Virus record (IMG/VR): IMGVR_UViG_2737471838_000005
Source: a virus
Lineage: Duplodnaviria; Heunggongvirae; Uroviricota; Caudoviricetes
Reading direction: 5' to 3' (one strand)
DNA: 18,295 nt
Positions 10,954 through 14,184 of this stretch are shown one piece after another. The notes beneath the pieces are model-generated. The model saw only the letters and a list, made by a program, of their open reading frames with translations. It was not told where the DNA came from and did not search any database. How positions within the stretch are numbered: the stretch's first letter is position 1; each line of letters begins with the position of its first letter. The position numbers and the translations under genes were made by a program.

Positions 10954-11019
10954 CGGTTTTCTCCGGTGGCACGGTGTTACTCAGCGGGAGTTCAGCCCCG
11001 CGCAAGATTGTAGATGAGT

Positions 11020-11271
11020 TTATTCTCCTGAAAAAGCAGAAAAGCCAGCTTTTATTCCGATCTCTTTCAATGCCTGTAATGAAGTGACAAACTCACCTTC
11101 GCGCAAGATAAATCCGTCCGTGACCCGAGCATCCACAAAATTAATTAACGCAGCCCCATTCTTTCGCAAACACATAATGCGGTAATGACTAACAAGATTT
11201 CCATTTTCAACGCACACAGCATAGAGGCCATCTTCACAAAAAATTTTACGCAGTTCTTCGATGTTCATCAT
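11020..11271 (-). CDS. rem: Small prophage protein, 83 aa
   Basis: ORF MMNIEELRKIFCEDGLYAVCVENG... Length and position (between ydfU and hokD) fit rem of Qin. I cannot verify the sequence from memory. Confidence 0.45.
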   Translation of the reverse strand: MMNIEELRKIFCEDGLYAVCVENGNLVSHYRIMCLRKNGAALINFVDARVTDGFILREGEFVTSLQALKEIGIKAGFSAFSGE

Positions 11272-11384
11272 CAGAATCCTTCCGGATAATTAGCTCTCCC
11301 CTTTAAGGGACCATCCCTCTTATCCCTGCGCGCTACTTAAGTATTTTTGATTCTATTCCGGCACCGTCCAGAACTTCAAACGCG

Positions 11385-11418
11385 TTGAAAATAAAAACAA
11401 AAACCCGCCGAAGCGGGT
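11385..11418 (-). terminator. Rho-independent terminator downstream of hokD (AACCCGC-TTCG-GCGGG + TTTTTGTTTTTATTTT)
   Basis: GC-rich stem with GNRA-like loop, followed on the minus strand by a long T-run. Lies 70-100 nt past the hokD stop. Confidence 0.75.
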
Positions 11419-11487
11419 TAAGTGCGGGTGCGTTGAGGATGCCTGCCACATCAGAGGTGGCGAGGGATTTCTCCCCCGCCGGGTCTC

Positions 11488-11643
11488 TTACTCCTCAGGT
11501 TCGTAAGCTGTGAAGACAGCGACCTCCGTCTGGCCGGTTCGGATTCGTACCTCGCAGAGGTCTTTCCTCGTTACCAGTGCCGTCACTATGACGGTTAAAC
11601 AGATGACGATCAGGGCGATTAACATCGCCTTTTGCTGCTTCAT
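11488..11643 (-). CDS. hokD: Hok-family type I toxin (small membrane peptide), 51 aa
   Basis: Hand-translated MKQQKAMLIALIVICLTVIVTALVTRKDLCEVRIRTGQTEVAVFTAYEPEE with AGGAG upstream. Directly downstream of relE. Below track cut-off. Confidence 0.8.
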   Translation of the reverse strand: MKQQKAMLIALIVICLTVIVTALVTRKDLCEVRIRTGQTEVAVFTAYEPEE

Positions 11644-11714
11644 AGCCTGCTTCTCCTGTCAACGCAAAGCAGAAGTGTCACCTTCGGTGCGAAACAGAGA
11701 TGTCATGCTTTGGT

Positions 11715-12002
11715 TCAGAGAATGCGTTTGACCGCCTCGCTATATACTTCCGAGCGTTCTCTTTTCCCAACAGAAATCACGAAAACGACAACTTTCTCGT
11801 CTATAACCTGGTATACAAGGCGATAGCCTGAAGACCGGAGCTTAATCTTGTAACAATCAGGCATACCACGGAGCTTGTTTGCTTCAATCCGGGGTGACTC
11901 AAGTACTTCAACCAGCTTCTTTTTCAACTGTTCACGTACCGTCGAGCCCAGCTTTCGCCATTCCTTTAGTGCCCGCTCGTCAAAATCCAGAAAATACGCC
12001 AT
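11715..12002 (-). CDS. relE: RelE toxin (ribosome-dependent mRNA interferase), 95 aa
   Basis: MAYFLDFDERALKEWRKLGSTVREQLKKKLVEVLESPRIEANKLRGMPDCYKIKLRSSGYRLVYQVIDEKVVVFVISVGKRERSEVY... Start overlaps the relB stop (ATGA). Confidence 0.9.
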   Translation of the reverse strand: MAYFLDFDERALKEWRKLGSTVREQLKKKLVEVLESPRIEANKLRGMPDCYKIKLRSSGYRLVYQVIDEKVVVFVISVGKRERSEVYSEAVKRIL

Positions 12003-12241
12003 CAGAGTTCATCCAGCGTCACACGTACTGGCTTAGGATTACGAAGCCGTTCTTTCACTATCTCCACAAGTTCAGCATCTTCATCACTCAGGAGTGTCTG
12101 TTTGAACGGCAAGCGTTCATTGTCAGCGATATACTCGAGCATGAGACGAAGCGCTTCAGAAGGAGTTACACCCATTTTTTCAAGCGCGGCGTAAGAACGC
12201 GCTTTAAGTTCATCGTCAATACGCAGGTTAATGCTACCCAT
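12002..12241 (-). CDS. relB: RelB antitoxin, 79 aa
   Basis: MGSINLRIDDELKARSYAALEKMGVTPSEALRLMLEYIADNERLPFKQTLLSDEDAELVEIVKERLRNPKPVRVTLDEL. Ribbon-helix-helix-type N-terminus. Coupled to relE. Confidence 0.9.
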   Translation of the reverse strand: MGSINLRIDDELKARSYAALEKMGVTPSEALRLMLEYIADNERLPFKQTLLSDEDAELVEIVKERLRNPKPVRVTLDEL

Positions 12242-12251
12242 GTCTTACACC

Positions 12252-12277
12252 TCTTGTAATTACAAATGTCATTACAA
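12252..12277 (-). promoter_or_regulatory. relBE operator (relO): perfect 12-bp palindrome TTGTAATTACAA plus adjacent TTGTAAT repeat
   Basis: cttgtaattacaaatgtcattacaag lies immediately upstream of the relB ATG. TTGTAATTACAA (12254-12265) is self-complementary, and a second TTGTAAT half-site overlaps it on the other strand. Confidence 0.7.
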
Positions 12278-12571
12278 GTATCGCACTACAACATGCTTAG
12301 GGCAAGTCACGAAGGAAGTCAGAAAGTAGTCGTAAGAACGGTGATCACTGTCCGCTTTGTGCCAGGAGCAGCCATTGCTAAGTCCATCCTGTATTGTGCA
12401 GGTCAGCTCGTTTTTAAAGAGTCCGGCCATCATCTTACTGGTACAGACACCATATACTTTGTGACGGTCAGGCTACATATGCACAACTCAACTTATTCAT
12501 CTATTTTTTGCTTTAGCATGTCAGTGTTGCTTTCTCGTCGGCGGGTGAGCGGTGACCTGACCTGTCGATAA
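12266..12571 (+). CDS. ydfV: Doubtful ORF, 101 aa
   Basis: ORF of the length I recall for ydfV between relB and flxA. Its ATG lies inside the relO palindrome, there is no RBS, and the composition is unremarkable. Included only because of positional correspondence. Confidence 0.25.
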   Translation: MSLQVSHYNMLRASHEGSQKVVVRTVITVRFVPGAAIAKSILYCAGQLVFKESGHHLTGTDTIYFVTVRLHMHNSTYSSIFCFSMSVLLSRRRVSGDLTCR

Positions 12572-12723
12572 AGGAACGTAACACGTTTTATGCAACACCC
12601 GCATGCGGCAGAAAATTATTGCCGAACGTTTACCCCTGTCAACAAGCTTTACTTTCTGAGGCGCGCCAGCCCGCGAGGAAAACAATCTGAACATCAAACA
12701 ATTAATGACACAAGAAATACGAT

Positions 12724-12750
12724 TAAAGATTTTTTTGTACATGCCGATAG
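12724..12750 (+). promoter_or_regulatory. Sigma-28 (FliA) class 3 flagellar promoter: TAAAGATT - 11 nt - GCCGATAG
   Basis: Near-perfect match to the FliA consensus TAAAGTTT-N11-GCCGATAA, about 25 nt upstream of the flxA Shine-Dalgarno sequence (AAGGAG at 12762-12767). Confidence 0.75.
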
Positions 12751-12773
12751 TGCTTTTTTAAAAGGAGAAATCT

Positions 12774-13106
12774 ATGTCTGTCACAATTCAGGGAAATACC
12801 TCAACCGTTATTTCAAACAACTCCGCCCCGGAAGGAACATCAGAAATAGCCAAAATCACAAGACAAATTCAGGTGCTGACTGAAAAGCTTGGGAAAATCT
12901 CATCGGAAGAGGGGATGACGACACAGCAGAAAAAAGAAATGGCTGCATTGGTACAGAAGCAAATTGAAAGCCTCTGGGCTCAACTGGAGCAGTTGTTAAG
13001 GCAGCAGGCAGAGAAAAAGAATGAAGACGCGACAGTTCAGCCTGATAAAAAAGAAGAGAAAAAAGACGATACAAATACCGCTGGCACCATTGATATTTAC
13101 GTCTAA
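12774..13106 (+). CDS. flxA: FlxA, flagellar-regulon protein of unknown function, 110 aa
   Basis: MSVTIQGNTSTVISNNSAPEGTSEIAKITRQIQVLTEKLGKISSEEGMTTQQKKEMAALVQKQIESLWAQLEQLLRQQAEKKNED... Coiled-coil-like, Lys/Glu-rich tail. AAGGAG 6 nt upstream. Confidence 0.85.
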   Translation: MSVTIQGNTSTVISNNSAPEGTSEIAKITRQIQVLTEKLGKISSEEGMTTQQKKEMAALVQKQIESLWAQLEQLLRQQAEKKNEDATVQPDKKEEKKDDTNTAGTIDIYV

Positions 13107-13120
13107 GTGACAGCCGTATT

Positions 13121-13144
13121 GTGGCCCTCATCGGGCCACTTTTC
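13121..13144 (+). terminator. Rho-independent terminator after flxA (GTGGCCC-TCATC-GGGCCAC-TTTT)
   Basis: Perfect 7-bp GC-rich stem with a T4 tail, 15 nt after the flxA stop. Confidence 0.7.
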
Positions 13145-13715
13145 GCCATCAGCCTTTTCTTTAAAGACATATTATCTTTGTATCATTTCTGATAGTTAAC
13201 ATTACAAGATATAAGTAATGGACGCACTCCCAATTAGTCTATTTAAATCGCCACGAGTTTAACTGACAACCCATGATCAATTATGAATTGCAACTATTTC
13301 TGTAGTCACTTTTGTGGGGACAGTCCACAAAACTGCCAACTTCCGCTTCTTGCTCTTAGCGGACATTAGCATAGGCTATTTACCATAACGCCTCATTACG
13401 CGCACCGCCCAGACTGACTCAGCGCGTTTCTGGCATATCCCCGGTAAAACAAGTAACAAACCACCCGAAAATGAACACCAGAAACGCGACTTAAGAATCT
13501 ACCCTATGAATGGATATGCACTCAACCGAATCGATCTTGGTTTCAATCTTTTTTATCGGGATCAGGCTTCTTTTTAGGTAACTTCGGGGGCTTAACTTGC
13601 TGATGACTTTGCGTTCGGCGCGTAAGCCAGGGATCCGGCGTTAATTGTTAACTGGTTAACGTCACCTGGAGGCACCAGGCACTGCATCACAAAATTCATT
13701 GTTGAGGACGCGATA

Positions 13716-13904
13716 ATGAAAACGTTATTACCAAACGTTAATACGTCTGAAGGTTGTTTTGAAATTGGTGTCACTATCAGTAACCCAGTATTTACTGAAG
13801 ATGCCATTAACAAGAGAAAACAAGAACGGGAGCTATTAAATAAAATATGCATTGTTTCAATGCTGGCTCGTTTACGTCTGATGCCAAAAGGATGTGCACA
13901 ATGA
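13716..13904 (+). CDS. Small hypothetical protein, 62 aa
   Basis: MKTLLPNVNTSEGCFEIGVTISNPVFTEDAINKRKQERELLNKICIVSMLARLRLMPKGCAQ. GAGGA 7 nt upstream of ATG. Stop overlaps the next start (ATGA). Confidence 0.5.
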   Translation: MKTLLPNVNTSEGCFEIGVTISNPVFTEDAINKRKQERELLNKICIVSMLARLRLMPKGCAQ

Positions 13905-14092
13905 ATTCAGCATTTGTGCTTGTTCTGACAGTTTTTCTTGTTTCCGGAGAGCCAGTTGATATTGCAGTCAGTGTGCACAGGACAATGCAGGAGTGTATGA
14001 CTGCAGCAACCGAACAGAAAATTCCCGGTAACTGTTACCCGGTCGATAAAGTTATTCACCAGGATAATATCGAAATCCCGGCAGGTCTTTAA
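13901..14092 (+). CDS. Small predicted exported or membrane protein, 63 aa
   Basis: MNSAFVLVLTVFLVSGEPVDIAVSVHRTMQECMTAATEQKIPGNCYPVDKVIHQDNIEIPAGL. N-terminal hydrophobic signal-like segment and two Cys residues. AGGA upstream. Translationally coupled to the preceding ORF. Confidence 0.5.
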   Translation: MNSAFVLVLTVFLVSGEPVDIAVSVHRTMQECMTAATEQKIPGNCYPVDKVIHQDNIEIPAGL

Positions 14093-14184
14093 AACAGTTC
14101 CGTAATAAATATCCGGTTTCATTCTTATATGCCAGCAATGGCAGGGATTTGTTCATCCTTAAATCTGTCATGAGGTTAAAACAA

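Follow-up and report, generated by a model that had tools for sequence, protein, structure and literature searches.

The stretch analysed here, 18,295 nucleotides (nt) of the virus record IMGVR_UViG_2737471838_000005 (hereafter the window, meaning the whole stretch at its full length), is matched from end to end and with 100% identity by the chromosome of Escherichia coli strain ZYB62, a bovine isolate from China. It is filled by the cryptic lambdoid prophage Qin (Kim), which is located between the truncated host gene ydfJ and rspB, an insertion site (ydfJ'/rspB) that ZYB62 has in common with K-12, strain 789 and S115. We conclude, with a probability of about 85%, that the window represents a copy of Qin that has lost its entire early control centre by deletion. 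The defectiveness of Qin, including its lack of replication genes, is already established (PMC10448788). New here is a private allele that retains only dicB and rem of the well-studied DicA/DicC/Rem/DicB/DicF circuit, together with observations on a mobile block and on the deletion breakpoints. The case is one of ordinary prophage decay, precisely mapped, rather than a new genome layout. What had looked like an odd arrangement can be traced to a mapped deletion within a cryptic prophage known from textbooks, and the region can be annotated with confidence.

The window is collinear with Qin of K-12, with 99.59% identity over 11,294 nt and 99.9% in two additional blocks. Its minus strand encodes the late genes and Q, its plus strand the operon dicB-ydfD-exo-xis-int. 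The lambda map is thus reversed in the window, which places the expected position of the early control centre between Q and dicB, in the interval 10954-14184.

The interval between Q and dicB

The set that we scanned consisted of 20 open reading frames (ORFs) of at least 60 amino acids (aa) on both strands of positions 10600-14267, 10 of them annotated and 10 unannotated. For all 20, Pfam returned Hok, ParE/RelE, RelB, FlxA, DicB and DUF1482 only, and no HTH_3, Phage_CI_repr, Cro or replication domain. Comparison of rem, orf92, ydfV, flxA, ydfU, Q and exo with PHROGs yielded nothing related to repression or replication, and no O-like initiator was present among the window ORFs scanned in the interval. 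DicF gave no Rfam match in the window, neither at the gathering score nor at E<=1; in the positive control, DicF of K-12 (L002 21384-21435) was recovered with 76.7 bits. The gene for the CI-type helix-turn-helix repressor, dicA, is not in the window and falls inside the deleted segment, and alignment to K-12 showed that the divergent Cro-type gene dicC is absent along with the operators and the promoters dicBp and dicCp. The flanks just outside the window, consisting of IS3, pinQ, ydfK, ynfT and ydfJ' on the left and host rspB on the right, contain neither a repressor/cro pair nor replication genes.

The inventory of the interval given in the initial annotation (rem, hokD-relE-relB, a doubtful ORF, flxA, a gap and two small ORFs) thus stands by annotation and Pfam, and the Pfam, PHROGs and Rfam searches bear out its statement that no immunity or replication module lies between the recombination genes and Q. 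Its further claim that the prophage controls neither its own lysogeny nor its replication agrees with the finding that the whole prophage copy holds no repressor/Cro pair and no initiator. This copy is therefore unable to run a lysis-lysogeny switch or to replicate on its own. The same annotation had overlooked that rem itself belongs to the immunity circuit, in which it acts as the DicA antirepressor (PMC10448788), that the two small ORFs are dicB and ydfD, that the non-coding gap consists of a remnant of the insertion sequence (IS) ISEsa1 plus a deletion scar, and that most morphogenesis genes are gone.

The deletion junction is situated at 13634|13635 and reads GGGAT|CCGGCG. In a base-level alignment the window equals K-12 up to 13634 (..GCCAGGGAT) and resumes at ..CCGGCGTTAATTG, 81 nt before the start of dicB. 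By BLAST coordinates, the DNA missing at this point amounts to 2.26 kb relative to K-12, 7.06 kb relative to both the prophage of strain 789 and phage PhiR42_1 (PV340562, host ECOR13), and 1.34 kb relative to E. coli 2020CK-00188. Between flxA and dicB, K-12 keeps ydfW, ydfX, dicC, dicA, ydfA, ydfB, ydfC and dicF. K-12 is itself a deletion derivative, as its ydfX is an N-terminal stub of the CII-like gene joined to an IS remnant. In PhiR42_1 and strain 789, the 7.06 kb comprise the genes for DicA, DicC, a CII-like protein, an O-like initiator, a DUF977 protein and a methyltransferase, several small ORFs, the mok/sok leader and most of ISEsa1. DicA of these relatives matched HTH_3 (1.3e-16, PhiR42_1) and DicC matched P22_Cro (1.7e-11); the CII-like protein, a member of the YdaT family, had a PHROG match at 5.5e-40, the O-like initiator of 321 aa matched phrog_391 ('replication initiation O-like', 1.1e-91), and the DUF977 protein belongs to a Ren-like PHROG family. 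The complete relatives share the order int-xis-exo-ydfD-dicB-dicF-ydfCBA, then dicA (CI-like) facing dicC (Cro-like), followed by CII-like, O-like, DUF977, methyltransferase, small ORFs, mok/sok, {ISEsa1-flxA-ydfV-relBE}, hokD-rem-orf92-ydfU-Q and the late genes.

The initial annotation had regarded the missing modules as replaced, in which case a host- or plasmid-type cassette (rem, hokD-relBE, ydfV, flxA) would have taken the place of the immunity and replication genes. Part of that cassette, relE-relB-ydfV-flxA-ISEsa1, is in fact a truly foreign mobile block, which is 99% identical on plasmids and flanked by 15-nt direct repeats. However, this block entered the hok locus and not the immunity/replication region, rem and hok are native to the phage group, as both are present in the isolated phage HannyBb (PP925841), and the DNA that is missing traces to a single scar, 13634|13635, on the right side of flxA. 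Moreover, rem, hokD, relBE, ydfV and flxA coexist with DicA, DicC, the CII-like and O-like proteins and DUF977 in both PhiR42_1 and strain 789. Replacement is therefore extremely improbable. The comparison of whole prophages that the annotation had proposed did locate the boundary, at 13634|13635 and between ydfW and dicB, but it is the boundary of a deletion.

Route of the deletion and the breakpoint upstream of dicB

Two other finished genomes, 2020CK-00188 and YPE10, have likewise lost the region for immunity and replication. On the left, their breakpoints lie beyond the IS end, by 37 nt in 2020CK-00188 and by ~320 nt in YPE10; on the right, the breakpoint is identical to that of the window. 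The sequence of 21 nt on the left side of the window junction (TTCGGCGCGTAAGCCAGGGAT) and that of 20 nt on the left side of the 2020CK-00188 junction (TTCGGCACGTAAGAGGCTAT) are similar, matching at 17 of 21 positions, and the BLAST alignment extends across. In addition, 2020CK-00188 is the nearest relative of the window over 2344-13634, with 17 mismatches as opposed to 35-50 for the others. Because of the shared right breakpoint, this flank similarity and this close relationship, we favour a loss of the ~7.06 kb in at least two steps as the most likely route suggested by the alignments. In a first step, a deletion of ~5.4-5.7 kb would have taken the replication genes, dicC, dicA, both divergent early promoters, ydfABC and dicF, and the resulting state would survive in YPE10 and 2020CK-00188. 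In a second step, private to ZYB62, a deletion of 1.34 kb between two imperfect 21-nt direct repeats would have taken most of ISEsa1.

Alternatively, the 7.06 kb may have been lost in a single deletion from a full-length prophage, independently of the alleles of 2020CK-00188 and YPE10. Both routes are compatible with the 'AT' microhomology at the window junction, and the right-hand site has served at least one lineage of clearly independent origin, S115-type Qin, whose left flank is 92.75% identical to strain 789 as compared with 99.3% for the right flank. A single event would, however, turn the 17/21 similarity of the left flanks into a coincidence, for which a rough estimate is ~1e-6 per comparison, and it sits badly with the position of 2020CK-00188 as the closest relative over 2344-13634. 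We consider it unlikely and retain the stepwise loss.

The right breakpoint deserves attention in its own right. Four deletion alleles (ZYB62, 2020CK-00188, YPE10 and S115-type) end at the same motif, TATCC, 80-84 nt upstream of dicB (breakpoints read at window 13630-13640, L003 35312-35321, L005 18345-18350, L009 1729-1735 and L010 6001-6005). Among the 5,426 complete E. coli genomes, 181 have the S115-type allele, in which the TATCC site is fused to the middle of the CII-like gene and the O-like gene and DUF977 are kept. Two candidate explanations were rejected. A general lambdoid mosaic boundary at this position was ruled out by 4,011 genomes with a contiguous dicF-dicB spacer. An IS-mediated adjacent deletion, with the 2020CK-00188 junction as ISEsa1 terminus, was ruled out as well, as the junction lies 37 nt past the end of the IS, in a remnant of the hok/mok leader; the end of ISEsa1 had been fixed by comparing independent plasmid copies of the element and the hok locus of HannyBb.

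The common right end could be due to serial nested deletions, to a structure-prone site near small inverted repeats, or to a site-specific activity. An enzyme- or structure-driven hot spot at TATCC would mean that the immunity region has been shed repeatedly. Such a hot spot would account for four junction alleles with different left partners and one right end, one of them as widespread as the S115-type, for the perfect 5-nt TATCC microhomology in the S115-type and YPE10-type alleles, and for a site that is not a general mosaic boundary. TATCC also adjoins the small inverted repeats CGTTAA..TTAACG and CCTGG..CCAGG. Against this, nested serial deletions that re-use microhomology at an earlier scar can account for three of the four alleles, the neighbourhood encodes no candidate enzyme, and the alleles sampled are only four. 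A hot spot is unlikely. If it did exist, it would provide a recurrent route by which a host disarms and fixes a prophage: the repressor, its promoters and DicF would be precisely shed, with dicB and the recombination genes kept, and no product of this route would be more reduced than the window. At any rate, the repeatedly used breakpoint upstream of dicB is a candidate hot spot of prophage domestication.

Remaining genes and their control

The features of the remaining prophage from Q to int are compiled in Table 1. The Q, Rem, HokD, RelBE, YdfV, FlxA, DicB and YdfD proteins are identical in the window and in K-12, and the integrase is identical to that of PhiR42_1.

Table 1. Features of the window between Q and int, with strand and supporting evidence
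Feature	Position	Strand	Evidence
ydfT/quuQ, Q-type late antiterminator	8858..9610	-	phrog_127, E 2.9e-105; protein identical to K-12
ydfU (DUF968 / HNH-endonuclease-like), nin-region gene upstream of Q	9624..10673	-	phrog_96, E 1e-170
orf92, phage ORF of 92 aa, function unassigned	10675..10953	-	phrog_1212; no Pfam match
rem, DicA antirepressor	11020..11271	-	Protein identical to K-12 Rem; function from PMC10448788
Intrinsic terminator after hokD	11402..11419	-	Fold of -12.3 kcal/mol
hokD (relF), toxin gene	11488..11643	-	Pfam HOK_GEF, 1.2e-23; mok/sok leader severed in alignment
GGAGAAGCAGGCTAT, one of the two 15-nt direct repeats around the block in complete relatives; other copy deleted here	11642..11656	-	Alignment
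Passenger part of mobile block: relE, relB, ydfV, flxA	11657..13337		99.1-99.8% identical on plasmids
relE	11715..12002	-	Pfam ParE/RelE
relB	12002..12241	-	Pfam RelB
ydfV, the doubtful ORF of the initial annotation	12266..12571	+	Annotation
Sigma-28-like motif TAAAGATT-N11-GCCGATAG, 24 nt before flxA start	12724..12750	+	Motif scan
flxA	12774..13106	+	Pfam FlxA
Stretch of 609 nt without intact gene	13107..13715		ISEsa1 remnant plus deletion scar
flxA terminator hairpin	13121..13143	+	-17.3 kcal/mol in 53-nt context
ISEsa1 3' remnant, 297 bp (IS1202-like, ISNCY), including ydfW' (13543-13632)	13338..13634	-	
dicB leader, 81 nt, sole remainder upstream of dicB	13635..13715	+	Alignments
dicB	13716..13904	+	Pfam DicB, 1.9e-40; protein identical to K-12
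ydfD	13901..14092	+	Pfam DUF1482, 3.9e-26; protein identical to K-12
exo (RecE-like, 823 aa), xis, int; full-length reading frames, same former pL-type operon	14185..18295	+	

In K-12, dicBp is repressed by DicA, DicA and DicC resemble CI and Cro in their action, and the antirepressor Rem relieves DicA repression of dicBp 165-fold (PMC10448788). The dicA gene is essential in the Keio collection of K-12 and yet absent from 24 of 63 strains (PMC5992433); the reason for its essentiality in K-12 is that it keeps dicB and dicF silent (PMC5992433; PMC11481867). In the window, the antirepressor part of this Gifsy-type immunity module is present in the form of rem and its target DicA is absent. The deletion also removed both divergent early promoters, dicBp and dicCp. 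As these went together with dicA, no repressor would be needed, and the loss of dicA, lethal in K-12 when it happens alone, would be tolerated with dicB intact because the repressor was lost together with the promoters it governs. The window thus illustrates from nature that a conditionally essential repressor gene may be lost without harm if the promoter that it represses goes with it; the outcome is an orphan antirepressor, Rem, and a dicB gene without its native promoter.

From this arrangement we infer that Rem would have no DicA to antagonise and that dicB, ydfD, exo, xis and int would be left without their native promoter. The pair dicB and ydfD is the stub of the pL-type dicBF operon. 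A consensus scan revealed no sigma-70-like site on the plus strand of 10766-14400. Together with the flxA terminator, this suggests that the genes from dicB to int are probably silent apart from read-through. Excision may remain possible if exo, xis and int were ever transcribed. A sub-threshold Rfam match to STnc100 (23 bits, 13629-13679, plus strand) starts at the deletion junction; it is weak and was not used.

On the other strand, the terminator after hokD separates relBE-hokD from rem-orf92-ydfU-Q. A weak promoter-like site (11379-11350, minus strand) lies upstream of rem, and rem, orf92, ydfU and Q follow it in close succession, so that any expression of Q would most likely start at a local promoter such as this one. 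The statement in the initial annotation that Q depends on another input is a reasonable inference, because dicCp, the pR-type promoter, has been deleted. No LexA box was seen upstream of rem when the sequence was inspected by eye, and we found no literature on the expression of ydfT/quuQ, the Qin Q gene. An isrK-like sub-threshold Rfam match (25 bits, 11398-11479, minus strand) covers the 3' hairpins of the hok mRNA and the terminator upstream of rem and was likewise not used; both this and the STnc100-like match are probably structure-driven or due to chance.

The predicted sigma-28 promoter of flxA was recovered as a sigma-28-like motif, in keeping with the initial annotation. The top sigma-70 consensus match of the region, TTGACA-16-AATAAT (11/12), is situated at 12615-12642 on the minus strand between ydfV and flxA; it points toward relB and is antisense to ydfV.

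The genes relE-relB-ydfV-flxA and ISEsa1 form one insert of ~3.5 kb in the hok locus, as shown by three-way alignment of PhiR42_1, strain 789 and HannyBb, whose hok locus is uninterrupted. A 15-nt direct repeat, GGAGAAGCAGGCTAT, flanks the insert where hok has its ribosome-binding site and start codon, and owing to the insertion of this block hokD lacks mok/sok. The same block is 99.1-99.8% identical in plasmid hok loci of Enterobacter, Salmonella, Edwardsiella, Citrobacter and E. coli, the plasmids being IncF replicons where typed (block compared at window 11642-13634, L004 11475-14780, L006, and L008 10060-10520). On the strength of these alignments, relBE-ydfV-flxA-ISEsa1 appears as one mobile block common to phages and plasmids. 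No terminal inverted repeats of ISEsa1 were found with a repeat tool or by local alignment. The ydfW gene is the C-terminal end of the ISEsa1 transposase gene and is cut short at the junction in the window.

The late region is equally reduced. Its terminase, head and tail set is incomplete, with a truncated small terminase gene, a J fragment and only the C-terminus of the tail fibre. Positions 576-2738 hold this tail fibre C-terminus and a 0.9-kb piece of J fused to the truncated small terminase gene nohA. Compared with PhiR42_1, ~15 kb with the genes for terminase, portal, head and tail are missing at 2343|2344, so that the element cannot form particles whatever Q does. Rfam matches to the cspA thermoregulator at 4800-5185 and 7663-8086 (both minus strand) cover cspI and cspB with their leaders. 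These two genes, with cspA-type 5' leaders of their own, are likely active under a cold-shock control that would be independent of Q. The element may accordingly be pictured as a fixed gene island, in which the expressed parts would be self-promoted accessory genes (relBE, flxA and the csp genes). Further to the left, an Rfam match to family IS009 (219 bits, 35-233, minus strand) falls inside the coding sequence of tfaQ. Just left of the window, ZYB62 carries a copy of IS3 between pinQ and tfaQ (L001 13716-14878), which is not present in K-12 or strain 789.

Several points weigh against the reading given here. The order of the deletions is derived from three genomes and not from a phylogeny, and in the block 8858-13634 the relatives differ by only 3-5 bases, which leaves no lineage signal. 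PhiR42_1 is a presumed inducible phage, on which no paper was found. The silence of dicB to int and the operon from rem to Q rest on simple consensus scans, and a second promoter upstream of dicB was proposed in an older study, as cited in PMC10448788. Finally, the window junction occurs in one of the 5,426 complete E. coli genomes and in none of the metagenome contigs or entries of the protein-to-contig index, and the 86-aa ORF that spans it has no record. For comparison, the K-12-type junction was present in 360 genomes and intact continuity of the transposase with ydfW in 797. As the window junction is known from the ZYB62 assembly only, a misassembly that collapsed the region is possible. 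Such an artefact is nevertheless very unlikely, as no long repeat flanks the missing segment, which shows only the imperfect 21-nt match, and as two other finished genomes have related scars at the same site.

Comparison with known systems

PhiR42_1 and the prophage of strain 789 are >99.5% identical to the window across 2344-13634 and 13633-18295 and carry the same relBE-ydfV-flxA-ISEsa1 block. Unlike the window, PhiR42_1 has a size of 48.7 kb and possesses a complete immunity region, a full ISEsa1 and a full head/tail set. The strain 789 prophage has a complete early region but has lost its late region in part, with a truncated tape measure gene and truncated head-tail joining genes.

The isolated lambdoid phage HannyBb has the same backbone and is 93% identical to window 8858-11657. 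Its gene order is int-xis-exo-ydfD ... repressor/cro-like - CII-like - O-like - Ren-like - methyltransferase - mok/hok - rem - orf92 - ydfU - Q. It differs from the window as a free phage with a different repressor allele and without the relBE-flxA-IS insert in hok.

Lambda (N-cI-cro-cII-O-P-nin-Q) and these relatives have in common the divergent repressor and Cro genes, a CII-like protein, an initiator, nin-type genes, Q, and a pL-type operon with exo, xis and int; no N homologue was identified in the comparison with the lambda-type early region. In contrast to lambda, the repressor is short and not RecA-cleavable, and its control by an antirepressor follows the Gifsy pattern (PMC10448788); the window lacks the centre altogether.

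S115-type relatives of Qin resemble the window in that the immunity region and dicF are deleted, dicB is kept and the right breakpoint is the same. They differ in their left breakpoint, which is inside the CII-like gene, and in having kept the O-like gene and DUF977.

Qin of K-12 MG1655 (b1543-b1579) shares with the window the ydfJ'/rspB site, an unchanged order of genes between tfaQ and flxA and again from dicB on, 99.6% identity over 11.3 kb, and the lack of the O-like replication gene and of most head and tail genes. There, exo (ydfE) and int are interrupted around a remnant of IS2, and an identical counterpart of the window's xis was not found in K-12. Unlike the window, however, K-12 keeps ydfX-dicC-dicA-ydfABC-dicF (2.26 kb) and with these genes a working DicA/DicC/Rem switch.

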